Shown in pieces: positions 30,092 to 58,879 of a stretch of DNA of 61,009 bases. The stretch comes from an uncultured bacterium. GTDB taxonomy: Bacteria > Omnitrophota > Omnitrophia > Omnitrophales > Aquincolibacteriaceae. Numbering within the stretch: the first letter of the stretch is position 1; every line of letters begins with the position of its first letter. The translations under genes were made by a program, and so were the position numbers. The notes under the pieces were generated by a model, which searched no databases, was not told the origin of the DNA, and saw only the letters and a list, made by a program, of their open reading frames with translations. Location: contig CAYZYT010000014.1 of assembly GCA_964482725.1 (NCBI GenBank), positions 1-61,009 on the forward strand, read 5' to 3'.

Positions 30092-30997
30092 TTAAACAAA
30101 TTCCAGCTTCACCTTTTTGGGAATAATATCGTGTTCATAAGCCATATCGAGCAACTTCCGGAACCCCGCTTCCCCGTCTTTGCCGATATCAACCGTTCGG
30201 GCATTCACATACATGGCAACGAACCGGTCATTTAAAGCGTCCGAGATCCCGCGGCCGAATTGGCTCGCGTATTCTAGGGCATCCTTCCGATGGTTCAAGG
30301 CATATTCGATGCTTTCTTGAAAGAGTTTGGAGAATGCCGCAATCGTCTCCTGGCCTAAGTCACGCCGAATGATATCGATCCCCAGCGGGAGCGGAAGCTT
30401 CGTCTTTTCATACCACCACTCGCCAAGATCCAAGACTTTCTCTAGCCCATGATCAGCATGCGTGATCTGTCCTTCGTGGATCACGAGCCCAAAATCGGCT
30501 TCGCCGGACTTGACCGCATCAAATATTTTGTCGAAGGGAACAAATATAGCTTCAAAAGACGGGGGAAGGATGGAGGAGGGAGGATGGAGTTCTTGGCTTT
30601 TCGCATAAAGCTGTAAAACAAGATAGGCCGTTGTAAGCTTGCCTGGAATGGCTATCCTTTTTTGAATGATGTCCGGTTTGTCGCCCTCCGCCTTCCCCCA
30701 TCCACCATCCGTTTTTTTCGCTACCAGAATCGGCCCATAATTGTCGCCCACACTCGCCCCTGACCGCATCACGACATATTGATCCGCCAGATAAGCATAC
30801 GCATGGCAGGAAACGGCCGTGACCTCCAGCTCACCTTTCAGCGCACGCTGATTTAGAGATTCGATGTCCTCGATCACATGCTCCACTTTAAAGCCGCGCA
30901 TATCGATCTTCTCATGCGCCAAGGCATAGAACATGAATGCGTCGTCGGGATCAGGACTGTGGCCTATACGGATCGGGATTGTTTTTGACGGAGTCAT
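30092..30997 (-). CDS. mqnD: Menaquinone (futalosine pathway) MqnA/MqnD-family protein, MqnD-like
   Basis: IGHSPDPDDAFMFYALAHEKID, IAIPGKLTTAYLVLQLY, VIHEGQITHADHGL, LDLGEWWYEKTKLPLPLG. Confidence 0.7.
   Translation of the reverse strand: MTPSKTIPIRIGHSPDPDDAFMFYALAHEKIDMRGFKVEHVIEDIESLNQRALKGELEVTAVSCHAYAYLADQYVVMRSGASVGDNYGPILVAKKTDGGWGKAEGDKPDIIQKRIAIPGKLTTAYLVLQLYAKSQELHPPSSILPPSFEAIFVPFDKIFDAVKSGEADFGLVIHEGQITHADHGLEKVLDLGEWWYEKTKLPLPLGIDIIRRDLGQETIAAFSKLFQESIEYALNHRKDALEYASQFGRGISDALNDRFVAMYVNARTVDIGKDGEAGFRKLLDMAYEHDIIPKKVKLEFV
30561..30589. repeat. GGATGG-family arm inside the mqnD-like gene (encodes LHPPSSILPPS)
   Basis: GGGGGAAGGATGGAGGAGGGAGGATGGAG. Confidence 0.6.
30683..30711. 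repeat. GGATGG-family complementary arm inside the mqnD-like gene (encodes DGGWGKAEG)
   Basis: GCCCTCCGCCTTCCCCCATCCACCATCCG. Confidence 0.6.
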
Positions 30998-31105: not shown

Positions 31106-34100
31106 TTACGCAGAACGCGCCGTCGCAAGATACTGATCGCGCATTTGCGTGACGATCTCGCTGACACCGGCGACGTTCAGGAAGCGTTGGAATCTCTCCG
31201 GCGTCACGATCGCATCTCCGTACGTTTTGAGAAGCTCGGCCGCCTGCAAGCTCTTCTCCCCGAAATAAACCATCGCTTTGACATTCAACGTCCCGGCGCC
31301 GGAATTGCGGCTACGGACGGCCTTGCCAAGAAGGCTTCTTGCTTCATCCAGACCGCTCGCGGGCAGCAGGAGCGGCCGGTTCGCTTGACGGAGCTGCCCA
31401 TTGATCTTCTCGAGAAAACTCCGGTCCGCTTCATTGCGTACCAGGACAGCGACCGGCACATCTCCGAGGATCTTCCGGATCACAAGCGCCGCGCCGTGCT
31501 CGATGGCAAATTCGGGGGCAAGCACCAGCACATCGGACGCCGTCAGAGTCTTGTCGCGGAGGAGGACCTTCGCGGCATCGGCAAAACGCTTCTGTTCCTG
31601 AGCGGTTGCTGGCACCGCCAGGTTAAACGCTTCCTGGGCAAAGGCCGTCGGAACAAGGGCGTTGATAACAAGTGTCACAACTGTCGCATCAAAAGTGTAC
31701 GGCACGAGCGAAATGATCCCGTCCGTGATCTTTTCCGTCACGCCGCGGAACCCTTGCATCGTCCCGCCGCCAAGACGCACATTTTCCTCGATGAACGATT
31801 GCACAGTGTAGGTCGTATTCCGTATTCCTTTTTTCGAACCCGTTGAACGTTGCCCATTGACCGAAATCCGACGGACTTCCGCTCGACCTTGGACAGGCTG
31901 AGTGATTTTGATTTCATCCACAACCCTGGCATTCAGTTCTTTTTCCAGAAGTTTCACAATCGTACGGATCTGTTCGATGTTTTTAGCAAGGAGATTTCCA
32001 GAAGCGAGCGGCTGTTCGGCCCGGAGTTTCAAGATCCGCTCCGGCGAAATCTCAAGATCGACCGAGATGGCATTTTTCAGCTGCGTTAAAAGGCCCTCAG
32101 ACCCATCCACAAAGAGTACTCCCAGGCTTGTGGAAGACACGAAGGAAAGCCGCGTCTTGATCCCGGGAGCGCCCTGCGGGAAAGGAGTTCCCTCATCTCC
32201 GATCTCCTGTACCCCGAACGGCCTGAGAAACTCTGCGCGGGTCTTTTCATCTTTATTTCCACGCACTTCCGCGCGAGAAGGGCGCACGGGCCGGAGGGCT
32301 TTGCTGATGCGCAAAGCCTCCTTGGCGATCGCCTCGGATTTAGCGTGAAGCCGAAGCCCGATCAACTGGCCGATCACATACGTCGCAAGGGCTGGATTGG
32401 CCTTGGAAGCTTCAATCAATTGATCATTTTCGGCCGTGGCGATCACTCCGTCGCGGAGCGCCTTCAGCGTCCCCCGGGCAGACGCTTTGAGCGCCTCAAA
32501 GGTTGCAGCCCGCACTTCGGAGCGAGCGCTCTCATTACCCGAGCCTTCGACGAGAGGGTTCCCAAGACGCACCGGCCGTATTTCCAGAATCTGAAATCGG
32601 TAATTATGTTGATCGATCCCGGAGCGATCCTTCTGGGCCAGGAGCGGAATACCCATATGCCATTTTTCACGATAAAGTTTTTCCCCTGAAGGAACCGCTG
32701 GATAAAAATATCCCAAAAGATAATCAAAAACCTGGTATTCGGCATCCTGAGAGTTTTGGATCCCGAGATTCTGAACATCGAGAAGCCGGAACCATGCTTT
32801 TCCGTCTGCGGGGTCATACGGCCCTTCCGAAAAATGGATCGGGACCACCATGTGGGGCATGGGCTTCCCCGGCAGACTTCTTGAGATGATCATGGCGCTT
32901 TCACGATCCACGCGGTGGAACCAAACCTTCCCTTCAGAAAAAAGACTCTTTAAAACAGGGAGATGGACGATCGCCTCTAATCTAGTATAGACATCTTCAT
33001 TCCAGGGCCTCATTTTTGAGAGAAGCGCCGGGGAAAGCACGGTCACAAAAGCCATCACGGCGGGCACGCCTCCCGGGCTGAAACGCGCCTCAGCCTGTTC
33101 TTTGGAAAGGCCGGCCACAACGCTTAACAATCTCTCCAGACGCTCCGGAGACTCGAGACCTTCTTTGATCTTTTGGGACAAGAGTCCGGTCACAGGTTTC
33201 CCTTCACTTACAAACCGCCCGCGGGTTAACGCTTCGAGGTAACTCAAGATATCATTTTTCAGCCTTGTCTCTTTTTCTTCAGATTTTGTCCCCGTGTCCA
33301 CCAACCGAAGAATCTGAACGCCCGGGAAAGGCACTCCGACCGAGGTCGTTTCCATCATTTTCCAAAGAGCCTGGTTTCCGTACCCCTCCCTTGTGATCAC
33401 ATTTCTTAATTCATAGATGCGGGCATCTTCCAAAATCGCTTGATCCCCCAAGATCTCCGCGAAGGCTTCGCGCCCATAGAAAGCACCCCAGGCCTTTTCC
33501 GCTCGCTCCGCGCCGTAACCGAATTCTCCGAGATTGAGCGCCACCATGTACTTCTGGCCCTTCACATCCACGGCATAACCCTGGACCTTCTTTGTGATCG
33601 AATCAAAAGGAACCGCGGTCGAATCAAAATGACGGGCAAGATTCTCGCGAACTACCGGCTGGTTGAGGATCGTCTCGAGTCCAAGATCCTGTGTTTCAAC
33701 ATAATTGTTAAACAGCGCCACCGAAACCTGGACCGTAAGCTTTTCAATGATCTCGAGCGCCTCAAGGTTCCACTGGATCTTTTCGTAGACGCTCTCTGCG
33801 GCTTGGGCGCGCCGGTCAAGCTCCTGGATCTTTGTGATCACAGGGGCCAGCGGCACATCAAACCCCGATAGAAATTCGTTCAGATAGGCAAAAAGATCCC
33901 CTTGCTTGACATGATGCGCGAGACTTAAAAAACCTTCTTTTTCTTTCATCCGGATCTCGCGGAAACCTTCGACGAAACCCAGAATGCCGCGCAGACGTCG
34001 CCCGGCCGACAAGGGTTGAGAATCATCGTCTTTCAGCCAGGTAAATTCCGGTCCCCGTGAGGCTAAAGACTTTGAAAGAAATGCTTTCACCTCGTCCGGA

Positions 34101-37100
34101 GAAAGCTTGAGACCTTCAAAGATCGCGTTCTCTTCTTCCGCGACCCGAATCGTTTCTTCCCACAGTTTGATATGCGCGCGGGCCTGCCCTTTTTCCATAT
34201 CCACCCTGGGAGAAGATTCCAAGATTGAGAATTGAAGATCGCGCCGGCTCCGCGGATCCTGATACCGTTCACGCAGGTCCATGAGCGCCTTGACCAGAGA
34301 ATCGGCTGAAGGCCTGCGCCCGCCCCCTTGCTGCGTGCTGATCTCACGATCATTGTATTCCACAAGGAATCCATTGGTGATCTTCCACTCCCCGGTCCTC
34401 AATTTCGCCACAAGTTGATCGTGCGTTACGTTATCTTTAAAAACATCCATCTCCCGGCCGGTCTTTACTTCCACGATCGTAAAAAGTTCCGGCATGGCCC
34501 CGCCCCAAACTCCGATCAAAGCCGCCATGTTGGTCACCGCTTTCATCATGCTCGTGGCCGAAGCTTCTAAAAACTCATCGGACAGCATGACGGTCGCGGA
34601 AACACCCCGGAAGATCACCGCGGCATCTTGGATGTTGTAATTTTCAATAGCAACAATCTGCTTCTCAAGCCCGAGCAATTTCACAAGTCTCTGGATCTCG
34701 ACAAACATGTTGTGCGCATCTTCGCCAAACTCCCTGCCACCGATCACGATTCGCGCGGCGCTTGCTTTAAATTTTTCAAGTGCGGCGGGATCTCGTGACA
34801 GATTGATGAGGATTTCCAGCCATTTGTCCGGCCCCTTGTACGACACTTGTCGCCGGATGTTTGAAACAATGGGGTTTTTGAGAAGGCTTTCTTTCAACGC
34901 TTCCATGCCCGGCATAGCCTGGAACGCTTCCCACGCTTTTTCATCCCGCAACGCTTCGGTCATAAACCTTTCATAATCCTGAATAAGCTGAATATCGCTG
35001 ACCCCGATGCTTTCCCGGTCTTTCCTGTAACCCGCGATCACTTCATCGATCCATGCGCTGTAGCCTTGTTCTTCCTTGAGCCAGAGCAGGGCCCTCGCAA
35101 TATCCGCCGCCCTGACATGCTCCGCCTTTCTTTGAAACTGGTCTAAAAACCCAGCGTTCGTCTCTTTTCGCAGCGCCCGAAAGACGTCTTCGTCGGACGC
35201 TTCTGGCGAAAGCCCCAGTTTTTCTTTATATTGTTCGATCAATCCTCTCAGGAGGGGCGCCTGCCACTGCTCCAGAAGAACGCCGTTCGTATTACGCATC
35301 CCTTGGTGGTTATACCCCTGCAATTTATTGATGAACGTCGGGACGATCTCACGTGCCAGCACCGGCGTATGTTCATAAAGCCCGACGCCTGTGATCACGT
35401 GGGAAGAAAGCCCGACCGCATCCACAATGTTGATCTTGCCGTTCTTGGTGATATAGCGGCGAAGCACTTCGGGATAACCCAGCATCTCATACGAGGCTTC
35501 ATCTGGGGTGTAAAGGCCCGGACGAAACACGGTGTGATTGATGTGATGATGGATCGCCTCCGGGAAAAGAGGCGTCGGCGTACTCACAAAAACCTCGTTA
35601 TCCACAAAAAGGATCTTTTTCTTGGCAAGGCCCTTCTCCTGAAGTTGCTTGACCAGATATTGGGTGGACCAGCCATAAACAGCCATGTGAACATCGCGCC
35701 AGAGATTGGATTTCCCTTGGACGTCCGGATACACCTCATCAAAAATATGGACCTTCTCGTCGTTCTCATTCTTATACCAGGCGTCGATGTAATAGTTCGA
35801 CATCTCTCCAAAGTGGGTCTCCGTTTTATAAACGTCTACCTGGATCTTTTTTCCGAGGATCCTCTTGGCATGATAGTGGTCCTGATCGACCGCTTTTCTT
35901 CGGAAATCATCACCGACATCGAGCTCGAAAGAAAATCCGAGGCTTTTGTCGCGGGTCAAAACGCCGCGCAAATAATCTCCTAGGGTCCTGCGCCCATTCA
36001 CAACTTCCTCCGGCAATCCCTTGGCAAACTTTTGTCCTTTAATCGTTTCGTAGATCACATTGACGGCCATAATGTCCTTCACCGTTTTCCCGCCTTGAAG
36101 CCCGAAATTTTTCGCCCAGGCCCCGAAAAGATCATGCATCAAAGCCCCCAGTCCGCCTGTCAGTGTTGTCTCCGCCACAAGCCCAACATAACGGCGAACA
36201 TTCTTCGCTGAGGTCGCAAACCGCTTCCCGAGGTTTTTGTTCAGAGCCTCCAAAAGGGTCCGATCGAGCCCGGCTTCAAGCTGACGACTGACCACGGTGT
36301 AATTTTTTAGCGGGGAGTTCTCCGCAACATAATTCCTCAGCTCTGACCGCCCTGAAATTTGAGCCCTCTCCCGGTCTAGTTTTGAGACTTGCGAAAAAAT
36401 ATCCGAAAAAATTTGAGCGTCTTGTTTGTTGATTTCTTGGAAGAACTCCAGCGAGGTCCGGAAATTTAGCGCGGATTGATTCAGGGCGGCAACGGCGTCC
36501 AGCATGCCGTCATAGATCGCCTGAAAGCGCTCCGCTTGTCTGGGATCGATATCTTTAAATCCCTCCCTCACACTCAAAGCGAGCTTTAAATGTCTTTTAG
36601 CATCCCCCAGCTTGAGAACGACCTGATTAAATTCATGGTTCGCGACCAAAACTTCCATAGCTTCACGCTGTTGCGCGCGGATCTCTTCTGTTCGCAAGCC
36701 CTCCGAAGAATCTTTCCCGGCAGGGGCCCCCAACCTTGATTCGGAACGGGACGTCGTCTTTTCGGCCATAAGACCGTCCACGATATGATGCTTAGCCGCT
36801 TTCATATCAGCGAGGAGCTCCCCGAGCGAGGCGTCTGGCTTTATATCCTTGAGGATCGCATAGGCTTTCGCCAGCCCCGGGTTCATGGAACCATCCCCTT
36901 GCCCCGCCGCACCTCGGGCAAGAGCCCCTCTCAACACAGCACCTATTTGAAGGGCGGATCCCAGCTCCATCTTGAGATAATCGATAAGAACAACATCCCC
37001 GCTCCGGGTAAGAATAATATTGGGGCCCTTCAAATCCCACCGAGGAAGGCCCATTTCTTCCAGAACTTCAACCGCCTCCGTAGTCCTGATAAGCACATTC

Positions 37101-40100
37101 AAAACACCATTAAGATACTGAGCGGGATGAGCGGCATGGGTCTTCTCAATAAACTGTTCAAGATCCATTCCGGGGATATACGGATAAACGATATAGCGGG
37201 GCTCGCCTTCGAGGACTTTATCTCTGTCCGGACGGAAAACGAACGGATCATAAACTTTCACATGGATCCCCTTCTCGTCCAGGATCTGATTGATCTTGTG
37301 TTCGCCCGAAATGTTTTGAGGCCTGGCAACACTCAGAAGCTCGTCATTAGAATCCACTTCCTGCTCTTCCTTATGTTCGTCCTGGTAGATTTTAAGAACG
37401 AAGACTTGCCCGGTCGGATCGTCCTTGATCGTTGTCTTATAAACTCTCGCTTGAGGGCGATCGGAATAATGCATTGTCCCCAAAAGCTGAAAAACAACGC
37501 GCTCGGGAAATCTGTCCCCCGCGATCACCGGCCGGAGCGTCAGGGTCTCTTGAGAGATTTCCCGTGCGTCCTGGTCCTCGATGTCCCACTTGGGGATCAA
37601 AGGATCCACGATCTGCGCACTGTTGACAAGCCAGCGGTGCGTTTTTTCCGGAGGAAGGTCAAAGTGAAAAGAAACAAATCCTTTTCGAACACCCGTTACG
37701 TGAAAATTTTCTCCGACGAAAAACTCCTGACCTTTTCCCCCGTCGTCAAAGGGATCCCAAAGCCAGAAATCCGCAGGCTCCCGGGTTTCTTCTTTTTCGG
37801 GGAACTGTTTGGCAAAAACCTCCGAGATCTCCGGGATGAGTTCCAGGGGGACATAAACGGTCCCATCTCGCCATTCTCGGGTTCGATTCTCGATCACAAA
37901 AAATCTTTTTTGGCGGAGCGTCCCATCCAAGGCGCTTTTGCTCTTTCCGATATAAGCTTTGACTCCCGATCGGGATTTAATCTCCAGCCCCATCCAGGGA
38001 GAAATCGCTCCAGGCTTCATGTTGGAAGGAATACCAAAAGCTAACGAAATGGCCTTCCTTTGTTCCGGGGAAAGGACTCTTGAGGCTTCATGCCTCGATT
38101 CGGAACGCGCTGCGTTTTGAGGGATCGCGCCCCAGCTCCAATCGTCGTTCACGAGATATCCGCGAACGGGCTGGCCGTTCCATACCGGGACAAGTGCCGC
38201 GGGAAATTTCTTTTCTTCGAGTTTCTGACGGAGTTCCTCTGGCGTCATGAAATCTGCCGCCCAAGGGAGCTGGATCAAAAATCCGTCATCCACAGGATAG
38301 CCGGCGGCTTCAAGCCGGACCTTCCAACGCTTTGTCTGGAGCGCGCGAGAAGTCTCGGGAGACTCGTCTTTGCCGGGAGGTTCTTTGATGGACGCGAACG
38401 TGTCTTCGTTCCCGAACGGAAAATTCGCGCCGTTGGACATCTTGTCATCACTGTTGCGCTCGAATTTCCACACCCGGACCTGCTTGACGGCCCGGCCGTT
38501 CTCATCGATGCCGTCCCATTTTTTGTCGGCCACGGAAAAATCGATCGGCCGTGTTCCGTCAAGCGGCAGCTCGATCATGCGGTAGGAAGGCATCGCGTGA
38601 GAGGTCTGGGCGCGCAATTCGGGAGAGGCCTTGGAATAATGGACCGGCATGCGCGTCCCATTTACCTCCAGGAGCTCGGAAAGTTTGTCTTTGAGCCGAT
38701 CCTTCTTCTCGATCAACCCTTCGGACATGATCGCAAAACCCTTCGGGAGCCGGATGAGTCCTTTTTTGACTTTTTCCACGAACCGGGCATGCGCTCCGAC
38801 CCAATTGACATCGAGAGGATAAAGCGGGTTATCGATATTGGAATACAGGACCGTATGGACACCAAATCCACCGAGCCAGTTCTTTGCCTCCTGAAGCTGG
38901 AGGATATAATCGAAGGCATCTCCGTGGCCGCCGCCCTGAAGTGCAAGCTTCCCTTTATCTTCCATAAGGGCTTTCCCCGTGGGATTCGCCAGCACGGGAA
39001 GGACTTTCTGCTTCACGACCTTGATCCGGTCCTTCACTCCGAACCAGTCCTGCGATTCAAAATACGCCATCGTCTCAGCCTGGGTCACATCACTCGTCAC
39101 GATGATAAGCGGGAAGATCTTCTTGTGCCCGTAGCGATTCGCAAAAGCCTTGTATTTCTTGATCATCGATCCAAAAAGCGTGTCATCGCTCAAAGGCAGT
39201 CCTTTGAAAAGCCCCTTAGCATACGGGAAATATTCGCGAAATCGGGCGCCGCTTCCGCCGGCCATCAGAATGATCCCAAAAGCCGCCTTGTCTTCTCCTG
39301 CGCCCCAGGACAAAAGGACTTCGCCGGATTTTTCGTCTTCGGGATCGTTCGCCGCCGCAAGTTCCACGGGTTTTGCCAGAGAAAGATCCAGCTCCTTCGT
39401 TTGAGGATGATCGACGAGTCTTTCTTTGAGACGCACGATCTCCGCCCAATCCACGCGCTCTACCTGATCCAGAAGCTGTTCGCGTTGGGCCGCATTGAGT
39501 TCATCCCAGAATCGGAGCACATGCTCCTGCCCGTATTTCGAGAGCGTGTCAGAAGCGGCAGAATACCGTTCTTTTTCTATTTCCTTTTGTCTCTGGAGAG
39601 CCGCCCGGAAAACCGCGAGGCCGCCCACATGCCAGATCCTCAAGCGCCCGTCCGCGGCATGCCAGACCGGGATCTTGTTTTGGCTGAAAACCTTGGCCAG
39701 TTTTTGAAGAGTTCCTTCATAGTCGGCTTGGGTCACTTTCCAGAATTGCGGCATCGTATAGATCCTGATAAGCCCCTTCAATTCGTCTCCGGTAAGGTTC
39801 CGGGCGAGCACTTCCGCAAGGTTGGGACGGTGGAAGAGACCCCGGGCCCAGGAGACCAACGGTTCCACAATGAACGCACCTGCCAGAATCCCCGTTCCCA
39901 AAACGATCGAAAAGCTGGACGCTGCAGCCTTAAGGAATTCCTCAAAGTCTCTCGCTTCAGAGCGGCGATAGGTTTGAACGATGAGAGCCGGAACTCCTGA
40001 AGTAAGAACGCCTTTTTGAACCCCGGTCCTGAACTGGACGCCCGCCGGGAACATGATCGGCCGGAATGCATCTTTAATAGCCCGTCTTTCATGCCCCGCA

Positions 40101-43100
40101 AGGTCACCGTTTTTGACCGTAAACCCTTTCAATTGGACTTCCCGTCCGTTGGCGGCTCCTTTGATCACGAGATCGAATGTTCCGTTCTGCATTCTCTTGG
40201 CCATCGCCACCGCTGCCCGGAGCGCTATGTCCTCCGGATTGCGCGGCACCTTGCTAACGACCCGCTTCAGCGCGCCCGCCATTAAAACGCCCGCCACAAT
40301 AACTCCAACCGTTATCAAAAGCCGAATTTCGGACCGCGCAGTATCTTTCAGCCCGGAACCGGAGGCTCTCATTTTCATCACGGCCGGGTTAAAGAACCAA
40401 AGCGTGACCTCGCGAGCGCGGTTTTCATTGTCGCTCAGGTGGATCACATTCGCTCCGCGGGTCACGGGATTATTGATCAGAAAAATACCGTCTTTTGCCT
40501 TTTGACTTTCATAAGCATCACGACGGATACTCCCGGCCTCGGCTTCTTTCGGATCCGTTTTCCCTCTGAAATACTTCTCCATATCCTGCCAACTTCGGGC
40601 CTTGCCGGGGATACCGCGGAGAAAAAGTGCCGGCACCGAAGTCCCGGGACGTTCGAAGTCGGCGCTAAGCTGAAAGACAAAGTTATTCAGGAAAACAACC
40701 CGTTTCCCGACATGCTCCGCCGGCACACCGGGTTCTTTCTTTAATTCCGTGATAAGAGCGATCGCTCCGTCCGACAACCGTTTCGTATTTGCGCCTTCGC
40801 GCTCCCAGATCTCCAGGGCTTTTTCCGGAGAGATCCCGAGCCGCGACGGGATCTCCTGAGCCCCATAAATGGAAGATGGATCCCATGAGGCGCTAGCACC
40901 AAAGCGATGCTTGTAAAGACCGATGAGCTGGTAAAGGTCGGACTGACTGAGCGCTTCGGCGCCTTTCCCGGCAACGTCATACAGCCGTCCATAATGCTGC
41001 GGCACCATGTTGTTTTCGATCAACCATTCACTCTTGTAAACAAGCGCCTGCTCGCTGTAATAACCAAACTGTTCGATCCGGCGAAGGATCTCTTTCACGG
41101 TCTTGGGATGGAAATACCCCATCGACGGCTTCAGGAGCAAGACGCCGCCGTCAGGGTTCTCGGGGTCCCAAGGCCCTGCAGCATAACGACGAGGGATCTC
41201 CACTTCCACAATACTCTTCCTCGTGGAAGTCGCAGCATTAAGAATGCGAAATGTCATATCCTCAAGAGTGTCTGTGGCGGGCGTCGTAATTCTTCCCTCG
41301 GAACGAGAAGCGCCAGGTTTTCTTAGCGCGGAGCGATTCGCCGTCAAATCTGGAACGGCTGTCTCAGCCTTAAGACCGAGCCTGCTTTTTTGTTCCTCCT
41401 GGATCACCGTCTGGATCATGAGATTATCGAAAGCCCGTAAAAAAAGCCCAGCATAACGCTCTACTTCCTTGCTCAAGGGGCGTCTCTCACCCTGCTCATC
41501 TCCGGAATCTTTCTTTCCGATGAACCAGCGCATGTATGCGGGCGCCCAGCCCAAGAGCGTTGCCCCAAGCAAAGCCGCGACAGCAACCCCGCGTATTTCT
41601 CCGGAAGCCGGCAGCGCAAGAAGTCCCAGAAAAATCGAAATAATGGGATAAACCCAAAGCTCGCTCCTAGTAAAATCAAAAGCATTCAATAAAATGGTCC
41701 ACCTTCGCACCTCCAGCGTCCTTTTCAAAACAGCCTCGGCTTCTTCGAGGGCTGCCACAAGCGAAGCAACGTCGGCCGCTTTATTGACCTTCTCAAAAGA
41801 ATTCTTGAGCGCAATATCTCCTGCCAATATTTCCCATACTTTTGAGGCCTTCGGATAAGCTCTGTTCAATCCCTTCACCCGCTCTTCCAGGGACGCTCCG
41901 ATATCGCGGCGAAGTTCCGATCGTTTGGTATGGGCAGTTAGAAGGTCCAGAGCTACGAGCCGAGCATTAGGAAGGATCGGCTCGGAGGAAACTTGCGGGC
42001 TTAACCTGGCGAGCGTTGTCTCATTTCCAAGCAGAACCGTTCTCGTTTTGGGCATAGCGATCATGCCGGCGGGCCCCGCCACAAGCACGGTATCATCCAC
42101 CAACTGTCCATACCCCTTTAGCTCATGCCGCAAAACGTCCATATCGTCATGGTCATTTTCGCCGCTTTCCGACGGGAAGGCTAAGGCGCCGGCCGAAGCG
42201 ATCGTCCGCTCTCCCTCCGGCAACATGTCCGAAGCCTCCTGCAACAAGGCTTCGACTTTTGCGTTCACTTCCTGGGTTTTGATATCGGCATCGTAGAGCG
42301 GTCGCAGAGTCTTCGCGTAAAAGGCTTCATAGCGCGGATACAAAGGAGAGTTTTTTGGCGTTCTTCCAAGAACCTCCGCGGCATCATCAAGAGCTCTTTT
42401 GGCATCATTTCGGATCTGCATCCACTCATCAAGTTCTTCTATGGCCCTATAAAGCGGTTCGTTGCCCGCCCCTTCACTACCTTTTCCATCACGAACCTCC
42501 GCTCGTTGGGCCGGTTTCTTCATGACCCAGACTTTTTTGGCGGGCGCTACCGGTGTCGCCGGAGCAGGATTTGCCTGGGGTTCGCTTTGGGCTTTGACCT
42601 CTCCCCGGTCCACGGCTTCGATCTCTTTTCTTAATGCCTCGTCCTGGATAACCGGCCGGTCCGCCTTGCGCTTCAGCCCAACCTTCAGGAAGAGCTCGAC
42701 GCCTTTTTTGTCTTTGCCGAACACCGTCTCAAGGAAAGCGTCCAACTGGTACAGAGAAATGGGATCAAAATCAAATTTTACGACCCCCTTCGCGCGGAAT
42801 TTTTCCGGAAGATCCTCGGGATTTTTGAACTCTATTTTGGTGACCAGAATCCTGTGAAGATTCTCAACCGTCATGCGCCTGCCGCCGAAGGTGATGTCCG
42901 GATCATTGACAAGGATCTCGGTCAAAAATTGGGCCAAGGTCTTGCCGCGCCACTCTTCGAGTTCGTAGGGCGTCAGGTCCAGATCCGCCTCGCTCCCCTC
43001 ACTCCTCAACTCGGAACGGGCGAGATCAGGACGTTGCTGGGGTATTCCGAAAGGTGTCTTGATCGCGATGATCCTGCCTTCCTGATAGGGATGCTCTTCG

Positions 43101-46100
43101 TTTTTCTGTTCGCTCACTTCAAGCTTATGGAGGGCAAAGCCTTGTGCTGTAAGCATGTCCCGAATGCTTTGTTGCGTAAAACCCTGGACGTGCTCAAGCA
43201 ACCCGAAACGAATCCCGTATTTATCCATGAGCGGGATCTCGATAAAAACGACACCGCCCGGTTTAATAATCTGCCCGACCTTGGCTAGAATTTCTTCGGG
43301 ATTAGCGGTATGCTCCAAAACGTCCTTCAATAGGACCATGTCATAACTAGAACGTTCAAAGGCGAGCGTCTCAAACTGCCCTTGATGAACCTTGATGCCG
43401 AGTTCTCCCATCTGCCGAACGAATTCCGGAACCATTTCGACGCCTTCGGCATCCCACTGATAACGCTTCTTCCCTTCGTCCAGCAAAAATCCGGCGCCGG
43501 CTCCCACTTCGAGGACTTTCATGCCTTTCAAGTTAAAATCTAGATCCGAACGGTTGTCTTCCAAGAATTGAAGGATCTTCTTTGCGCTTTCCCTTTTAGC
43601 GGGCTCTCGCTCAGGATAACCGCCACTCAGATAGCCTTTAAAATAAGCGTCGTCATAATATCTTTGAAAATATTCCGGACCCGGCATCGGATCCATAAAA
43701 AGATGCCCGTTGCTTTTCTGCCGGAAAAACAACTGCACGCCCCCGATCACAAAGCTCGTGGCCGTTCGAGCATAACTCTCGGGCGAGGCGAACTTGAACC
43801 CGCGAAAAATATTCAGCGCGTCCGGACCTGACATATATTCGACGACCTTTGTTTCATGATCAGAGGTAATGCTCCCTTGCAAATCGATAACTTCGGCGCG
43901 GGGATCCCTCCACGCCTGGAGATCCTTCCTTGCCTCAGAAGCAACCTGGTCATTGTTGCTGTCCAATTTTTTAAATAATTCCGCTTGGGTCTCCCTGACC
44001 TCGGAGCGAAGAGGTGTGAGGTTGAAGGATTCACGGGTCAGATTGATTTCATAATCCGGTTTTGTTTTTTCGGTATATTGCACATAACTCGGCTGAAGGG
44101 CTCGCTCGTAAAAAACGACTTTCCTGGGTTCATCCTTGGGCTTCAGTCGCCGCGACCGTTTCTGGAAAAGAGCGATATTGCGTCCCGGATTATCCTGGAT
44201 GCGAAAGCTGGCGTCATAGAAACCGGCGAGATCCGGCGTTAGATTCAGGGCATACTTGCCGTCCACCAGCAAGGTGGTCTCCCGATCCAGCGTAAAAGAA
44301 TAGTCCCCTTCAAAGGGCGGCTTCTCCCCTTCCGCGAGCCGGAGATACGGATTCCGCACCATAAAAGTCCGCGACGCTTCGCCCGATAAGCGGAAAGCGT
44401 TGATCTGGCGGAAAAGTTCCGCGATCTCGTCTTCCCTGAAAAAGGTCGCTTCTTCATAATAAAAACCTGACTTGATCTTCCCGGAGGGATCGACCTTTTC
44501 GCCGGTCACGTACTCTTCAATCTGCGTCCTCCATCCCGACGGTTTGAGGAACAGGTCCAGTCCAAGATTTACCACCTTGGATCCCCGCGCTGTTAATCGC
44601 TTGATGGTTTCTTCAACGATGGTACTTTTCCCGGAACCGGACGGACCGTCAAAAGCAAATACGCTGAGACCCGGCTGGCCTTTTAATTTTTCGTTTCTTA
44701 TTTTCCCGATCTCCTCGGCGATCTGGTCGACCACCGCGCCAACGTCCTGCCGAAAAGCTTCTTCGCGCGGAATGAATTCCCCCGCCTCGGTCGAACGGTT
44801 CCCCCAGTATTGGTGCGCACGCCCGAATTGATCCACAATCCTCGGAACCGTCGCAGCGTCCCCGCCCTCACGATAATAAGTAGACGCGACATTAAGATCC
44901 ACGTTGTGTCCGGTTAAAACATGCACAGGAATGGGCTGAGACAGCCCGGAAGCACTCACGCCTTCCGCCATGATCTCATCGGCCCGGGCTTGCGTAAGCA
45001 CGCGACCGTATTCCCCTCGCTGCATCAAAACCCAATCGAGGGTATGGCCCGAACGGAGTCCGTATTGTTTCATCATCCGGTAAAGCAGGTCCCGGTGACT
45101 GGCAACGCGCGCTTCGGTCTCCGAGCCCATGATGTAATAGAATTGGATCTTTTGGTCCGGATTCAGGTTTTTTGAAAACTCGAAGACAGCCTCTTCTCCT
45201 TGATGGTCGTTGCCAAGACCGTTATCGGTATGACGAAGAAGCGGAAAATAGGGCTTTAGAACATTGTCCGAAAGAGAGCTTCTCTCATCTGCGGGGACCT
45301 TATCCGACTTAGGCACATTCTTGTAAAGTATCTCTCCCTGGGTCCTGAAGATCACCGTATCGAGGGACAATTCATCCATGGCGATCAAGGCGACTAAAAT
45401 ATGCCCCCAATTAATGGGATTCCCAGCAATAGGAAGGAAACCGACGCGGAGCGGACGGTTCATGGGGCGACGAGACAACACCCTTTCGCCTTTCTGATGC
45501 ATATAGGTTTCCAGAGAAGCGTCCGGAAAAATCTCTCCCCGGTCGATCTTTCCCTGGAGACTCGTTAAGGAATGCTCGAATTGATGATACAAGCGTGGAA
45601 GGTATCCTTCGCTCTTCTCCGCCAGCCGAGGGTCATGAGACCTCAGCTCTTCCTCGATCAATTTCCACACATCCAGAGCAAGTTTCGGAGCGCCAAGATC
45701 CGTCTCCGCTCTCGCCTCCGAACGAAAGTCTGCAGAATGCCAGAACTCCGGCTCGTGGACACGCCCGGCCCAATCGCTTCCGTGCCATCCATTAAAAGTC
45801 CCATTGAACGGCTGTTCAATCTGAAGCTCTCCCTTGTAGGCCCGTTCCCGCAAACTTCCTGCCGCCGCCTTGGAAGGATCGGTCGCACCGAGGAATCCGG
45901 CACGGATCTTTTTCCAAAGTTCTTCGTTCCTCGCGTCTTCCGGAACATCCGGAGACACCTCAAGATGCACAGCGATAGTCTTTTTCCCGGGAGTTTCGAA
46001 TCCTTTTTTGACGAGAAGATAGAACCCGTTGATCACAATGAATTTCTTTCCCCGGAGATCCAAAGGGACCTCTGTGTCGGCCGGGACTTCGATCTCTTCC

Positions 46101-49100
46101 CCGTAAACCTGGTCCGCGAAATAAACCTGTTTTGATTTGTCATTCTTCAAGGCCGCCCACAAATCCTGGATGCGCTCTTCGGTAAGATGGGTCCGTTCCA
46201 TGAATTCAGCAGCAGAAATAATGGGGATACCGCGCCCCTGCACCTTCGGAAGATTTTCTTCGAGCTCTTTTTTCGCCGGCGCGGGAAGCTCGGCCTCGAG
46301 GCCCTCCAGCCCCTTCATTGCGGCATAATGCATGGCGCTGTAGTGCCGGCTCAGAAGCCCGAGACGCGCGACATCGCTGCCGTCCCAAACCATGATCTCC
46401 TGCGCAGCCAATTTCCACGGATCCGCGATCGCAAGTTCCAGCACTTTGGTCACCGTCTGAAGCGTAAAAGGGCCGTTGCCGGGCTTAAAAAGAAGTTCTC
46501 CGCCAAAGCCGCTTCCGGGACGGTTCGTCACGGGGATCCCCTGGGTCGGCGCTTCGCGCTTTTGAGCCTCGAGGATCCTGGCGGCAATCGCCGGGATCTC
46601 CGCGCGATAAGCCGCGTCATTAAACCTCAGTTCCGAGCGACCGACGAATTTCTGATGGTTCGTAAGCGCGCTTTTGTACACATCCATATACTCGGGAACG
46701 ATCTCTTCCCATGAGCGAACAGACTCCATCGCTCTTTTTTGCATTCTTCCGAAACCTTCGGGATCACGTTCGTAGCGATTTACAGCCCGCGCCGTTGCCA
46801 GATAAAGATCGTCGCTCAAATCGATACGATCCATATCTCCCTGGCTCACTCCTTTGAGATAACCAAAACGGAAACCCGTGCTTTTCCCAGGGAATTCATC
46901 CGGATCCACCACCGTGTCATGAAGACCGCCCGTTGCCCGAACCACAGGGACAACGCCATAACGCTTCATTTGCTGCTGAATAAGTCCGGCAGGCTCGAAC
47001 CGCGAAGGAACAAGTCCGATATCGGCCGCGGCGAGCGTTTCTCGTACGATCGGAGCCCCCATCACCGGGATAAATTTGAATCTCCCGGGAAATTCCCTTT
47101 CTAATTCATAAAATCTTTCTTCCAAATCCCTGTCGCCGGTACCCACAACCGCTAAAAACGCGCCCAATCCGCCTTCACTTTCTTTTCTGACAATGCGCGC
47201 CGCTGCGCTGACGACCCAATCCATCCCTTTCTGCTGACGAAGGCGGGAAACCGCCACGATAAGAGGTGCCCGGAGGTATTCGGCCTTATAATCTTTTTCG
47301 TTTTTGTCGAAAAAATGTCTTTTAAGAAATTGCTCTTTATTGACCTGCTTGGGTGAAAGATCCTGTAAAGAATAGGTGGCCTGAATGTCCGCAAGGCTTT
47401 CGGGATTCCAAAGATTCGCATCCAGAGCATTCAGGATCCCCACATAATTTTCACCGCGGCTTCGCAACGCCCCGTCAAGGCCGAAACCTCCCGCCGGAGT
47501 CAGTGTTTGATCCCGAAAAGATTTGCTAACCGTAATGATCTTATCCGCAAAAACAATGCCCCCTTTAGCAAGGTTCGCCTGGCCGTGGAATTCTAACCCT
47601 CCCAGAGGATTCAGCTCGCGCCACGGGATCCCCATCCCCGCCAGCTGCCAGCCCCGTTCATGCATCGGATAGCGAAGCTGATACGCATCTCCAAGATTGT
47701 GGACCGTATAAACGGTTGCCGCATCATGGAACTGGTGATCTTTCACAAACCGCATGAACGGGATCACGAGTGCCGTCTGAGCATCATGGGCCTGAACAAT
47801 ATTAGGACGAAGCTTAAGAAGATCCATCGCCTCGACGGCGGCCCTGGAAAAAGCGGCAGCTTCCCAAAAGGTATCCGCCTCTTTTTCGTTATACCCGTGC
47901 CTGAAATATTGGGCGATCCGTATAAAATAGATCGTCACATGTTCCAGCTCGGCCTTAAAAACCTCACAGGGAAGATCTCCGGCGCTCGTGGGAATCTTGA
48001 AAGCCAGGATCGGTTTATTTTGAACAGGGGTCTTCTGTTGAACCCAAATATTGGCATGTTCCGGGAGAATCACGGAAACATGCATTCCCTCATGCATGCG
48101 CTTGATCGCGGGGACAAATTCACGAAGAACGTCTTTCACACCCCCTGCTTCAAAAAAGGGCGCCATCTCATACGCCACGTGAACGATCCTCTTGATTTCG
48201 CCGGTTTCCACTGCCCTGACTTCCGAGCGGCGGAGGTCTTCGGTCTTGAGTGTTTCCAGGACCTGAGCCTCTGACATAAAAGAGCGGATCATTTCCGGAG
48301 CAACGCTCAGTCCGCCTGCCTGTTCCTGAACCGGCAGATGAAAGAATTGATCGCCCCGCCCGGCATGTGCCGACCAGGCATACCGACCGTTTTTATAGGA
48401 AAAAATAAATTGAAGGCTTTTGGGGGCATCCAGAGATACACCGACTGTCACAATGCGCTCACCGGCGCTTGCTCCGGATATGAAAATATTTTCAGGTTTA
48501 ATGCCCCAGGGCTTCTCGAGAACGCCTCTGAGCTTCTCCGCCGCTTCATCCAGCCTCATTGAAGCCTCGGCGAGGCTCACATCATCCGTCGTCGATACCG
48601 CTTCAACAGAATGCCAGTGTTCGAGTCTTGCTTCGATCTCTTCAATGGCGGCTTCCGGGGACAGAACGGACGGGATCAGGCCCGCATAAGACGTGGGGTT
48701 ATTTTTCAGTTCTGCGACCAGCGTCCGAAAAAGAGCCGGGTGACGTTTGATCTGACGATCCAGCCCGAATCCCGGCGTCCCGAAAGAAATAATCGTTCTC
48801 AAATCCTCAAAAAACTTTTGATCGAACTGCACCTCCGGCCAAGAGAGGTCTTCCGTCCCTCTCACTTCCGAACGACCATCCAGAAAATCGCGAACCTCTT
48901 CTTTGTACTCGACGGCTCTCGCTGCATCCTGCCGTCTTTCTTTCATAAATTGAGGGAATTGCTCGAAAAAAAACGCCGGCCCTGCCATTTTCAGGCGTGA
49001 ATATTCATTCCTGAGCCTGGACAATAAATCCTGGGCGCGCTCCCAACGGTGCGTTTCATGCCGCAAAACATTCCTTTTCTTATTTGCTCGCCGCCGCGAG

Positions 49101-52100
49101 TACTCACGTTCCAAGCTTTTCGTTAATTGCTCTAAATGAGTAATGCGCAACCAGTAACCAGTCCGGGCGGCTAACCATGGAAGGCCCAACGCCGCGGCTT
49201 TAAATAGCTCCCGCAGTTCCGAACGAAAGCGCTTGGCTTCGTAAGCGGCGGCCGCGGCAAAGGCGAGCATATTTTCCGGCGTGGTGTCGATATCGCAGCT
49301 CGAGCAGAAGATAAAAGGCCGTTTCCCCATGATCCTGAAGATCCATTGAGCGTCGTGCCTTATGACCTTGGGATGTTCGCTGGGAAGGATGCTCAGCGTG
49401 TCCATATTCCCCAAAATGACGGGCCTGCGCTCATGGAGCTGAGTGTCTTGAACGGCATCGTAAACCTCGGGAAGAAGATAGATGCTGTCCACGCTCAGGA
49501 TATCCACATCATACCGGACCATATAAGGAAGCTTCTTCTCCGCATCATCAGGGCTTTGGGGACGGCAGGGGTGGGCGGCCGAAAGGGCTCCCAGATGACG
49601 GACCTCTCGCGAAAGACGGTTCACCGGGTCCACGGAATATTTCAAAAATTGCTCCGGGCTGAGCATGCCCGTGGGCCGAGGATCCAGAAATACCACGATG
49701 TCCGCTCCGCCTTCTTTGATGAGCCGCTCCACGTTCGCCGCGATCAGGCGCTCCGAGTATTGGAAGAGCGCCTGGAACATCTTGACGCCCTCGTCGTCTT
49801 TAATGCCGTCTTCGCGATCCATCATGGCCAACATTGCCTCACTATCTCCCATCAGGAACGCGGCTAGCGTGTAAGGCGCGATCGAATAGGCGATCTTGGG
49901 CGTATTGGCGCCAGCCTTCGCATCCAGCTTCTTCAAAGTTTCAACCGCCAAACCAAGACGGCCGGTCGTAGCAGGATCCACATCCTTGAGCGAATGCCAA
50001 TCGATCCCCGCAGCCGAAAGCGTCATGTGGAGCTGAGGACTTGCGACAAGTTCTTGGAGCGCGATCAGAGTTTCCTTGCCGTTCACCGTATGGATCTTGC
50101 CCGAAGCCGTCCATTCCGCGCGTTTTTCAGGCGGAAGATTCGCAAGGATCACGGCTTCATGTTCGGCGCTAAGATCCATCATCGCGGGGATGGTCTTTGC
50201 CCCGTATTTTTTGATCGCCCAGGCAAGTACCGCAGCTTGCGTGTCCGGATTTGTCGCGGCCTCTTCGATCGAAACTTGTTCTTTATGCTCCGCGTTATAA
50301 AGTTTCACGGCCGCGAACCCCAAAAGCGGCACGAACGCGCGGGCGGCGGCCATCTTTTCCAGCGCCGCCCGTCTCGTTTCGTACATTTCGCGGATTTCGG
50401 AACGCGAGCCAGAGGCTTTTTCAGCCGCTGCGCGGGCCTGCCTCACGGCGCGGAGCGAAGCGATTGTGATAGGCGTCGCAAAGGATGGGAGCAAGAGAAG
50501 CGCGCGCGTAAGCATCGCATGATGCTGCACATCCGGGAACGCCCACTTGACTGAAGTATAGAGCGCGATCCAGAGAAGGACCGCGGGAACAAAGCTGACC
50601 ATAAAAATATTAAAATAATGGCCAGAAAGATCCCGGATCCCGGGTTTGCGCACCGCTCCGGCCTTCTCACCCCTCACCTCGGAACGGGCCGTTCTTGAAA
50701 TCCATCGTTCGACCGATTCCTGGACGATGGCGTTCCGGTCCTCGGGCGTATTTTGAAGCACACGCTTGAAAGCAGAAAGTCTTTCTGAGGTGTAGGCGCC
50801 GATCGATGCGAGGAAATCAAAACGGTCATTTTCGTCCGGAAGAAGCTTGGCAAGCTCCGGACTGTAAAAACCAAAGCCGGCATTCCGGGCCATAAATTCG
50901 TGTCCGACAAGGAAATCCCCGCCCTTAAGAAAATCCTCTCCGACCTCACGGTTGTAGGACGCCCCGGCGGTTGCAAGGACACCGGGCAATTCCACAAGCC
51001 CCTTCTCTTCGAGGAACGGCATATCGGGTTTGTTGATATCCACGCCGCTGAAAACACGAAGGCCGTATTGTTTCGCAAGAGCAACGACTTTGACGATCTC
51101 TTCATCGCTATTGCGGTGCGGCATGATCGCGATCCCCGGCACGCCGATCTCGACAAGATATTTGAAAAGCGATTCGAGATGGTCTTCTTCATTGGTTTTA
51201 GAACCTTTGGAATCCCCAAGATACGGATAGATCGGGATCCCACCCGCTTTTTTGATGATCTCAACGACCGTTTTCATGCTCGGAGATTCTTCGGCATCCG
51301 GCGCGATAAAACAGGAAAGTTTTGCCGAGGGTTTCAGAAACGCACCCCGGAGGATCTCCATCGGAACATCAATGTCGCCGGCTTTATACCCCGCTACCGC
51401 CTTGGCGGCCAAAACCTCATCGCCCAGGATCTCTTTATAGAAGGAGATGTTATCGCCGAGCCGGTACGCCACGCCGGCCATAAGATGCCGGTCCGTGGTG
51501 TTCCGGTCCTGGACCTGGAGTTTCGCTTCTTCAAGGATATTTTTGTCATAGTCCACACTCACAGAAATGCCGAGATCTTTCAGCTTTTGGTTCACTTTAC
51601 TGATCATGGCACGATTCCGGCGCTCTTTCGACTCGCGGACTTTGCGGAGAAGCTCCCGGATCAGCGGATGGCTCGTATCGGGCAAAGCATGGCAAAGAAA
51701 ATAGATCATGTTGGGAACGCCCGGCGCATTCCAGATAAGGTTCCGGAAAATTTCCGGGGCTTCCTCGCCAAAACTGACCCGCATCTCGAACCCGGATGTT
51801 TTTTTCATCCCGAGAATTTCGGCGGCTTCGAGGAAATCTTGGTTCCCGGCGGCGGTGTCATGATCGATGATCCCGCCGTTCCGCAGCCCTGCACGGAACA
51901 AGCGGTAGGCGATCTCTTCAGGATAATACGGGCTGTAGGAGAATTTGCTGTGGACGTGAACATTGTTGTTCTTGGAAGCGGGCGCCATAGAGATTTCGCC
52001 CCGTTCTGCCATGATCGCCAGCGCCTGAAGCGCATCCTGGCGAACGGCTTTGGAAGGATCGCGCAGCTTTTTTTCGAGTTCGTTCTGATGAGGAGTCGCG

Positions 52101-58250: not shown

Positions 58251-58261
58251 AAACAGGGGGG

Positions 58262-58359
58262 GGACGGATATCGGAGGGAGGATGGCATTCAACTCTTTGT
58301 TTTTCGCTTTCAGTTAGTCCGCTTTTAGTTGCTCCCTCCACCATCCGTCATCCGCCATC
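58262..58359. repeat. GGATGG-family palindromic element with a long loop; the right arm overlaps the last codons of 58348..58797
   Basis: GGACGGATATCGGAGGGAGGATGGC ... GCTCCCTCCACCATCCGTCATCCGCCATC. Confidence 0.75.
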
Positions 58360-58797
58360 TTGTTTCTCGGCGAGATCTTTCCAATTGGCGAGGGTGTTTT
58401 CGAAGCTTTGGTCGAGGATATTCTTGACCTTTTGTTCTCCCAGGAGCATGCCCGCGATCCCGAGGTCCCAGGAGACTTCGACCGCGACCTCAACACCCTC
58501 AGGCTTCTCATGAAAGAAGTGCGTTCGCGTCATCGAGCCGTTCATGGGAAGCGCGCTTTGAATCACAGCCCGGCTCATGGGCTCCCAAACGGTCATTTCC
58601 TGTTCGACTTCGATGTGCTGACGGTCCAAGACACAGGCCTCATGCCAACGCAGGCCTTTCCCTTCACGAACCGTTCCGGTCCGTTCGCTTTCCTTGACGC
58701 CGTCCACCCATTCGGACATTCGCGCCACGTCGGCGAGAATGCCCCATACTTTTTCGAGCGGTGCGCGGATCAATATGTTTTTAGTGAGTGTATTCAT
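58348..58797 (-). CDS. SRPBCC (START/polyketide cyclase-like) family protein
   Basis: NILIRAPLEKVWGILADVARMSEWVDGV, typical of the family's N-terminus; size ~150 aa. Confidence 0.7.
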   Translation of the reverse strand: MNTLTKNILIRAPLEKVWGILADVARMSEWVDGVKESERTGTVREGKGLRWHEACVLDRQHIEVEQEMTVWEPMSRAVIQSALPMNGSMTRTHFFHEKPEGVEVAVEVSWDLGIAGMLLGEQKVKNILDQSFENTLANWKDLAEKQDGG

Positions 58798-58805
58798 TTT
58801 TTCCC

Positions 58806-58879
58806 GATGGGATATCGGATAGTGGATGGAGGATGGCGAAAAACTGGTTGCTCCATCTTCCCTCCGCCTTCCGCCATCC
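58806..58879. repeat. GGATGG-family palindromic element, intergenic, abutting the xth stop codon
   Basis: GATGGGATATCGGATAGTGGATGGAGGATGGCG-AAAAACTGGTTG-CTCCATCTTCCCTCCGCCTTCCGCCATCC. Confidence 0.85.

Follow-up and report, generated by a model that had tools for sequence, protein, structure and literature searches.

A giant open reading frame of about 25 units

The DNA analysed here, hereafter called the window, is a contig of 61,009 nucleotides (61 kb; CAYZYT010000014.1) from an uncultured bacterium of the phylum Omnitrophota. It contains a single stop-free open reading frame (ORF) on the minus strand (31106..55759) of 8,217 codons and uniform base composition, which encodes a modular multi-enzyme protein of 8,217 amino acids (aa); the other genes of the window are housekeeping genes. 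The protein is a chain of about 25 units that are divided from each other by copies of a short motif, R-[S/A]-E-x-R (R[SA]ExR). An original prediction, made from the DNA letters, had placed a GT5 glycogen synthase, a UDPGP-family nucleotidylyltransferase, a GT35 glucan phosphorylase-like module, two nucleoside-diphosphate kinase (NDK)-like modules and one P-loop kinase-like module on one polypeptide. All six do lie within this single ORF, and the coordinates given to them agree with the units delimited by the motif. The further claim that no free-standing glgA, glgC or glgP is visible in the window was also borne out, as tblastn searches of the window with E. coli GlgA, GlgC, GlgP, GlgB, GlgX, MalP and MalQ gave nothing outside the giant ORF. 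With the E. coli proteins as queries, neither GlgC nor the branching enzyme (GlgB) nor GlgX was found in the giant ORF or elsewhere in the window. Unless stated otherwise, the features described below are on the minus strand, and residue numbers refer to the 8,217-aa protein.

Three modules related to glucan-metabolising enzymes

The GT5 glycogen/starch synthase module (46640..48229, aa 2511–3040) was identified from Pfam, NCBIfam and PDB alignments. It scored 329.8 bits with the NCBIfam model TIGR02095 (glgA), for which the cut-off is 328.45 bits, and its matches to Pfam PF08323 (Glyco_transf_5, 158 bits) and PF00534 (Glycos_transf_1, 39 bits) correspond to a two-domain GT-B architecture. The module aligns end to end with E. 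coli GlgA, and in PDB it matches Arabidopsis SS4 as well as the synthases of Agrobacterium and E. coli over the full length (E values from 1e-47 to 1e-43). Residues corresponding to R300, K305 and E377 of the E. coli enzyme are preserved at aa 2839, 2844 and 2922, within the sequences VSRLRQQKG and PSRFEPAG, as are the HD and HN motifs, with HDW changed to HDA.

The second enzyme (38108..39964, aa 5266–5884) was recognised from Pfam and PDB comparisons as a UDPGP-family sugar-1-phosphate uridylyltransferase; a hydrophobic helix opens the module, and its catalytic part spans roughly aa 5400–5830. Pfam PF01704 matched with 26.5 bits against a gathering score of 22. The nucleotide-binding loop GGxGxR...K is conserved, MAGGSGARF...AKG of the module aligning with LLAGGQGTRLG...PKG of AGX1, and the arginine and lysine concerned are aa 5506 and aa 5515. 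At aa 5610–5613 the module has GHGD where AGX1/UAP1-type enzymes carry GNGG; we take GHGD to be the form of UDP-glucose/UDP-sugar pyrophosphorylases and GNGG that of the UDP-N-acetylglucosamine (UDP-GlcNAc) enzymes.

The GT35 phosphorylase-like module (32525..36349, aa 6471–7745), with its GT35-fold part at 33710..36349, was identified with AlphaFold/Foldseek and hhalign; its last 400 or so residues matched no known domain. When its AlphaFold model (predicted local distance difference test, pLDDT, 70.6) was compared with PDB, the top 50 Foldseek matches were all glycogen, starch or maltodextrin phosphorylases (E values from 5e-10 to 1e-7, about 870 aligned columns, TM-scores 0.40–0.51). Only 10 relatives of the module were found among 5.8 billion proteins, and those with a taxon label came from Omnitrophica and Elusimicrobiota. 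A profile built from these ten matched phosphorylases only in PDB, on the region that binds pyridoxal phosphate (PLP), and hhalign against E. coli MalP and GlgP (E value 9e-6) laid EASATSMMK on EASGTGNMK. The candidate PLP lysine, K7073 (K603 of the module; 34541..34543), pairs with K646 of MalP and is invariant, together with the EASxT motif, in the ten homologs. GVxxxEH and TNG of the family align with GVAxLH and TNG of the phosphorylases. An invariant RRQVxYKG is located 38 residues upstream of the GG motif, a MalP-like spacing; it was not paired with KRxHEYKRQ by global hhalign. As judged by the structural model, the module appears to be a deep-branching and very divergent branch of phosphorylases that is missed by standard annotation.

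The identities originally proposed for these three modules were thus upheld, for the synthase by the glgA cut-off and the full-length PDB matches, for the nucleotidylyltransferase by its Pfam score and conserved binding loop, and for the phosphorylase by a fold match over the whole catalytic region, with sequence models remaining below threshold. The PLP lysine suspected in the SMMKA region is the residue that aligns with MalP K646.

Three GT35-like proteins from outside the polyprotein family (P0003, P0008 and P0009) share a signal sequence and a conserved domain in their N-terminal part and GGI(D/N)LN...IKRD in their C-terminal part, which suggests, from sequence, that this version may be exported or attached to the surface.

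Long NDK-like modules

The two long NDK-like modules, located at 45725..46639 (aa 3041–3345) and 40337..41305 (aa 4819–5141), are paralogs of each other (E value 2e-18) and carry their catalytic histidines in NGWHGSD (aa 3326) and NVIHLSD (aa 5107), respectively. They were assigned with a family profile that hhalign aligned to E. coli Ndk with a probability of 95% (E value 3e-8), pairing the predicted catalytic histidine with that of Ndk. E. coli Ndk is matched by the C-terminal half of the family, and 30 family members show no variation at the equivalents of its K12, Y52, R105, N115, H118 and S120; both modules, which had been predicted to be NDK-like, have this full set of catalytic residues. 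Among 1.84 billion representative proteins, searched with a profile, relatives were present in 241 representative clusters (P0018, P0026 and P0048 among them), many of them stand-alone proteins of about 310–350 aa and many of them parts of proteins of 2,000–5,700 aa. Seven of ten stand-alone relatives scored 16–24 bits with the Pfam NDK model. Canonical NDK (PF00334) has the same catalytic residues and is about 140 aa long, whereas the NDK-like units measure about 260–330 aa and contain an insertion of about 100 aa. The long NDK-like proteins are a family of their own, missed at the Pfam threshold.

A conserved motif separates the units

R-[S/A]-E-x-R occurs 24 times in the giant ORF, at the unit boundaries, where 0.5 copies would be expected, and two to three times in each of the other five reading frames of the window. 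The motif scan placed the copies that bound the modules of the original prediction and their neighbours at 48215–48229 (RSEVR, immediately upstream of GT5), 46625–46639, 45710–45724, 43994–44008, 41291–41305, 40322–40336, 39950–39964, 38093–38107, 36335–36349 and 32510–32524. The same motif was found in 19 of 21 orthologous ORFs with 5–14 copies against 0.2–0.3 expected, which is a 20- to 50-fold enrichment. It sits exactly at the projected N-terminal boundary of the GT5 unit in four of four loci and of the GT35-like unit in nine loci, and it is 0–12 residues away from the C-terminal boundaries of these two units. R1, E3 and R5 do not change; position 2 does, and in concert within each protein, the motif being RSE in the present protein, RAE in L017 and P0019, and RPE in L014 (L and P denote orthologous loci and related proteins, respectively). 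The units between the motifs are the size of full-length stand-alone enzymes (E. coli GlgA; NDK-like proteins of about 311–345 aa) plus linkers of at most 20 residues, and pLDDT is low at the motif and on either side of it in both AlphaFold models (those of the GT35-like module and of the N-terminal head, M1, described below).

As far as can be judged from sequence, the motifs are most likely processing or recognition sites, and the concerted shift at position 2 is what one would expect of a site recognised by a factor that evolves along with it. Since the 24 conserved delimiters are located at module boundaries, the mature form may be a set of separate proteins. Searching the literature for the motif strings gave nothing relevant.

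Other explanations of the motif were also considered. A repeat at the DNA level, or re-initiation of translation at internal Shine-Dalgarno sequences, was rejected because the codons vary, GGAGG is present in only 3 of the 24 copies and no start codon follows consistently; the lineage variants preserve the amino acid pattern R.E.R. It is unlikely that the serine serves as a phosphorylation site for the kinase-like module, since whole lineages have alanine or proline at this position. Gene fission at module boundaries was examined as a sign that units work separately and proved uninformative, as the split in L021 coincides with a run of N and that in L027 is a 29-nt overlap and possibly a frameshift error. 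The motif has a codon bias of its own (first arginine CGN in 24/24, serine TCN in 20/20, last arginine AGR in 14/24 compared with 24% AGR overall), which may stem from common descent of the linkers.

Head, tail and orthologous loci

The protein begins with a head, M1 (53891..55759, aa 1–623), which has a signal-peptide-like start and the conserved motifs HIQEAHAN, LEGAG and GGFH and is the hallmark of the family. It ends with a tail (31109..31885, aa 7959–8217), and conserved homologs of this tail also close related giant proteins. A stand-alone M1 paralog of 737 aa with a signal peptide is encoded divergently on the plus strand (56037..58250) and has H-x-x-x-H, EG and GGFH in common with M1; it is a conserved neighbour of the giant gene, present at 16 or more loci with 44–71% identity.

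A search with the M1 alignment gave 22 loci, 16 of them labelled Candidatus Omnitrophota/Omnitrophica and six labelled uncultured bacterium; all 22 were taken to come from metagenome-assembled genomes of Omnitrophota. The M1-headed ORF exceeds 2,900 aa in 20 of the 22 and in most cases runs beyond the 10-kb flank that was examined, and it should be underlined that the module counts refer to the first 10 kb of each ORF. Within this range the GT35-like module occurs in 12–14 loci, GT5 in four, NDK-like in three, UDPGP in one and the tail in four. L006 has the order head ... GT5, NDK-like, GT35-like; in L019 GT5 is followed by GT35-like, in L021 GT5 is beside NDK-like and/or GT35-like, and in L017 it occurs together with UDPGP. 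Other combinations were seen among the related proteins. P0023 consists of head, NDK-like, GT35-like and tail, P0024 (1,164 aa) of head, NDK-like and tail only, and P0021 has pyruvate kinase and a LOG-like domain in addition to NDK-like; in P0014 NDK-like precedes UDPGP, which is the order in the 8,217-aa chain. Two direct combinations with the phosphorylase-like module were also obtained, P0008 being a fusion of UDPGP-like and GT35-like parts without separators and P0002 a fusion of GT35-like with a GH13 alpha-amylase-family domain. The family plan is a head M1 in all members, a long NDK-like unit and the tail in most, and variable cargo enzymes between them.

The NDK-like modules had been suggested to regenerate nucleoside triphosphates (NTPs) for glucan synthesis. 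This specific role was not sustained: NDK-like units are also present in P0024 and in the pyruvate-kinase-carrying P0021, and since these relatives lack glucan enzymes, the units are better regarded as a general component of the family.

The giant gene occupies a syntenic slot, with an exonuclease-III-like gene, a gene for a 204-aa protein and the divergent M1 paralog on one side and mqnA directly downstream (flanks at 30092..30997 and 56037..59647, compared with loci L005 and L018). Depending on the genome, the gene in this slot encodes between 3,218 and 8,217 aa, which indicates that modules have been gained and lost in place.

Other units of the chain

The P-loop belongs to a two-domain module (44009..45724, aa 3346–3917). 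By its motifs, the first domain resembles HxGH-type nucleotidyltransferases (NPINWGH, SxTYYR); the second resembles P-loop kinases and has the Walker A sequence GPSGSGKST at aa 3705–3713, and for both domains the family is uncertain. The second domain had been named a uridine-kinase/PRK-like module. The P-loop is indeed present, and the family label is plausible only, as the matches are weak and centred on the P-loop (NF006746, E value 9e-4; PDB 1rz3, 2e-4; uridine kinase, 1e-3); the homolog P0011 has a PF00485 match on record, possibly from its second P-loop domain. NadR was tried as a relative of the whole module and rejected, since hhalign with E. coli NadR covers the Walker loop only, with a probability of 16%. 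A protein search with the concatenated modules gave three matches, informative for this module only. The HxGH/SxTxxR and P-loop pair recurs in the very large multi-enzyme proteins P0011, P0012 and P0013, without the separator motif.

Between the UDPGP and GT35-like units lies a protein-kinase-like module (36749..38107, aa 5885–6337; FVLKIY, RWDLKGPN, LIDY) with weak matches to Ser/Thr kinases and to the kinase domains of lanthionine synthetases, and this unit could be regulatory. A small module (39965..40336, aa 5142–5265) starts with a hydrophobic helix and continues with a domain of some 100 aa. A pairwise match of this domain to E. coli GlgB in its CBM48 region might point to a glucan-binding unit, but at 24.6 bits, and with no Pfam match, it was too weak for an identification as CBM48. 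The chain further contains a PHP phosphoesterase unit related to nucleoside-bisphosphate phosphatase (50687..52423), a URO-D/MtaA-like methyltransferase-fold unit (49226..50404) and a class I S-adenosylmethionine-dependent methyltransferase (43019..44008), none of which has an obvious link to glucan. The protein-kinase-like unit, the HxGH-type nucleotidyltransferase and several units without assigned function are further members of this non-glucan group.

Predicted topology

The N-terminus (55630..55759) resembles a Sec signal peptide with AQA|AN, with five lysine/arginine (K/R) residues ahead of the hydrophobic stretch and none behind it. Three hydrophobic hairpin units (at about 52470–52620, 50440–50630 and 41530–41660) have K/R-rich outer flanks, which suggests that the neighbouring domains are cytoplasmic. 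In addition, a single helix opens the units at aa 5142 and aa 5266, directly after the motif. As judged by heuristics only, one uncut chain could hardly satisfy the signal peptide, the hairpins and the start helices all at once.

A processed polyprotein as the favoured reading

As judged from their sequences, the three glucan enzymes can be accepted as real; they appear capable of catalysis and are linked in evolution, and a functional link to alpha-glucan turnover is therefore well supported. With separators at the boundaries of the units, the ORF is better read as a polyprotein than as a fixed metabolon. Building on the module identities, the catalytic residues, the enrichment and boundary position of the motif and the recurrence at 22 loci, we incline, with modest confidence, towards a polyprotein that is cut and that carries enzymes for the turnover of alpha-1,4-glucan via a UDP-sugar; the substrate, the direction of flux, the cleavage and the localisation are inferred.

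The gene would in this case be a translational operon in which many enzymes are made in fixed amounts. One R-[S/A/P]-E-x-R in each short linker would be recognised by a co-evolving factor, most likely a site-specific protease, and the hydrophobic hairpin units would hold some of the enzymes at the cytoplasmic membrane. The PLP-dependent GT35-like phosphorylase would release glucose-1-phosphate from glucan, the UDPGP-type enzyme would convert glucose-1-phosphate and UTP to UDP-glucose, the GT5 synthase would extend glucan from a nucleoside-diphosphate (NDP)-glucose, and the NDK-like units would re-phosphorylate the NDP that is set free. Co-production of a synthase and a phosphorylase would be nothing unusual, by analogy with the E. 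coli glgCAP arrangement. A more specific version, in which the motifs are genuine proteolytic sites and the remote PLP phosphorylase, the UDPGP enzyme and a GT5 with an altered donor loop form a UDP-glucose route that dismantles and rebuilds glucan, is tentative and seems to us rather doubtful. If it were true, chromosomal polyproteins of Omnitrophota would be operons fused in translation, with a cleavage map that can be read from the sequence, and the UDP-glucose route could, for example, salvage the glycogen of a host or prey into the cell's own store.

Several observations weigh against the favoured reading. Of the roughly 25 modules, over half have no obvious connection to glucan. No protease domain was found in the chain by Pfam scans or by profile and fold searches with the M1 head; for M1, a profile search of PDB sequences gave nothing and the best fold match had an E value of 0.31 (model pLDDT 65.8), and a Tiki/TraB/ChaN-type protease, considered for M1 on the basis of Pfam E values of 0.083 to 0.0046 in two of five members, is not established. 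The GT35-like module falls below the sequence thresholds (Pfam PF00343, 21.9 against 27 bits; TIGR02094, 27 against 192 bits), and the confidence of its model is low exactly at the conserved active-site loops. The best solved relatives of the UDPGP module are the UDP-GlcNAc pyrophosphorylases AGX1/UAP1 (E value 3e-20). With Pfam PF00334, NDK-like module 2 reaches 25.0 against 27 bits and module 1 has no match. As for the synthase motifs singled out in the original prediction, the R300, K305 and E377 equivalents are kept as described above, but the lysine of KxGGL (E. coli K15) is replaced by glutamate (FFEAGGVKDV, aa 2537); the same replacement is seen in the closest orthologs, L006 and L017, while the more distant L021 retains KKGGLADV. 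Moreover, GT5 scores as an ADP-glucose-type enzyme, yet the only NDP-sugar enzyme present is of the UDPGP type. Finally, the signal-like N-terminus could direct a large part of the chain out of the cytoplasm, and steps that depend on NTPs would not proceed there.

Alternative explanations

The original prediction had pictured the protein as a membrane-tethered glucan/NDP-sugar metabolon, that is, an intact chain that channels glucose-1-phosphate, NDP-sugar and NDP/NTP between its modules, in which the motifs would be only linker or docking elements. The glucan part of this picture is supported by the three enzymes with their catalytic residues, by the recurrence of the GT35-like module and by the P0008 and P0002 fusions, whereas the delimiters, the unrelated modules and the general occurrence of the NDK-like units do not fit a dedicated metabolon. 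Similarly, the hydrophobic hairpins would be able to tether the chain, but the signals of the N-terminus and of the hairpins conflict with each other. An intact chain does agree with the single uninterrupted ORF, with hairpin modules interspersed with enzyme modules, with the adjacency of GT5, NDK-like and GT35-like in L006 and with the failure of the searches to find a protease. However, a plain linker needs no three invariant charged residues with concerted shifts between lineages, the module order is shuffled among orthologs, unrelated enzymes separate the glucan modules, and the charges that flank the start helices of the units at aa 5142 and aa 5266 would suit separate N-terminal anchors more than one continuous chain, as judged by heuristics. 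We consider an intact metabolon unlikely, if deserving of serious attention, and prefer to regard the ORF as a polyprotein or translational operon.

It could also be imagined that the protein is exported or surface-bound and acts on another cell, either by remodelling or harvesting the polysaccharides of prey or by acting inside the prey, and would not serve the storage glucan of the bacterium itself. The Sec-signal-like N-terminus with AQA|AN on the giant protein and the signal-like starts of the GT35-like homologs P0003, P0005, P0008 and P0009 point in this direction, and for giant proteins of Omnitrophota extracellular or predatory roles have been proposed and glycolytic domains predicted to be extracellular (10.1101/2023.11.21.568195; PMC10066038). 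In contrast, the nucleotide substrates of GT5, UDPGP and NDK would be unavailable outside the cell, the K/R-rich outer flanks of the hairpins predict cytoplasmic domains, and the gene is surrounded by housekeeping genes, so that we regard export as quite improbable. Still less probable, in our opinion, is that the storage cycle is a misreading of family names and that the enzymes make or trim another polymer or a glycoconjugate, for example one with hexosamine. The kinship of the UDPGP module to UDP-GlcNAc pyrophosphorylases, the altered KxGGL and the change of HDW to HDA in GT5, the extreme divergence of the GT35-like clade with its ten relatives, and a window in which tblastn found no branching enzyme or GlgC would all be consistent with such a product. 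They are to be set against the glgA subfamily cut-off that GT5 passes, the GHGD in the UDPGP module, the conserved PLP motif and the candidate phosphate motif of GT35, and the fusion of a GT35-like part to an alpha-amylase-family domain in P0002, all of which speak for glucan.

Comparison with known systems

MARTX toxins and polyproteins of the picornavirus type consist of one ORF whose independent units are separated by a short, repeated and conserved boundary site, as is the case here. Unlike in these systems, no protease domain was found in the present chain, the cargo is metabolic and of a housekeeping type, and the gene is a chromosomal, syntenic one in a free-living or symbiotic phylum. 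With the E. coli glgBXCAP pathway, in which glgP, glgA and glgC are adjacent, the chain shares the joint occurrence of a GT5 synthase, an NDP-sugar pyrophosphorylase step and a GT35 phosphorylase. It differs from GlgC-GlgA-GlgP in that activation is by a UDPGP-family enzyme, GlgB and GlgX are absent, the phosphorylase is from a remote branch that only its fold and active-site motif reveal, and one ORF replaces separate cistrons.

The closest likeness is to the giant multi-enzyme proteins already known from Omnitrophota, the 'Archaeovorins' of West-Roberts et al. 2023 (bioRxiv 10.1101/2023.11.21.568195), and to the 'multi-enzyme metabolic cluster' class of giant proteins in a 2026 preprint (10.64898/2026.06.07.730766). 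In this literature GT5 starch-synthase (PF08323) and GT1 are among the commonest giant-protein domains, and PGM, glycolytic domains, a sugar-metabolism module and transmembrane segments are described. The capacity for glycogen synthesis in Omnitrophota has been reported before. Post-translational cleavage of giant proteins has been suspected with no cleavage points mapped, and in the 2023 study the missing cleavage points blocked the analysis (10.1101/2023.11.21.568195). The main text of the two preprints mentions no separator motif and no phosphorylase, NDK or UDPGP domain in giant proteins.

Giant ORFs are a hallmark of Omnitrophota, and the window offers a compact and readable example of about 25 units. 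As the separator splits the chain into units of whole-enzyme size, and does so likewise in 19 of 21 orthologous genes, the question of cutting becomes testable. The glucan enzymes emerge as a recurring cargo theme, and two families overlooked by standard annotation, the deep GT35 branch and the long NDK-like family, come into view. The present protein resembles the published giant proteins in its phylum, its very long ORF, its predicted signal peptide and transmembrane segments and its many enzyme domains, GT5 included. With 8,217 aa it falls short of the 10,000 aa that served as the limit for those catalogues, and it represents a subfamily with a defined head, a defined tail, R-x-E-x-R delimiters and a fixed syntenic position. 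The presence of glucan enzymes on one polypeptide is a modest extension of published observations.

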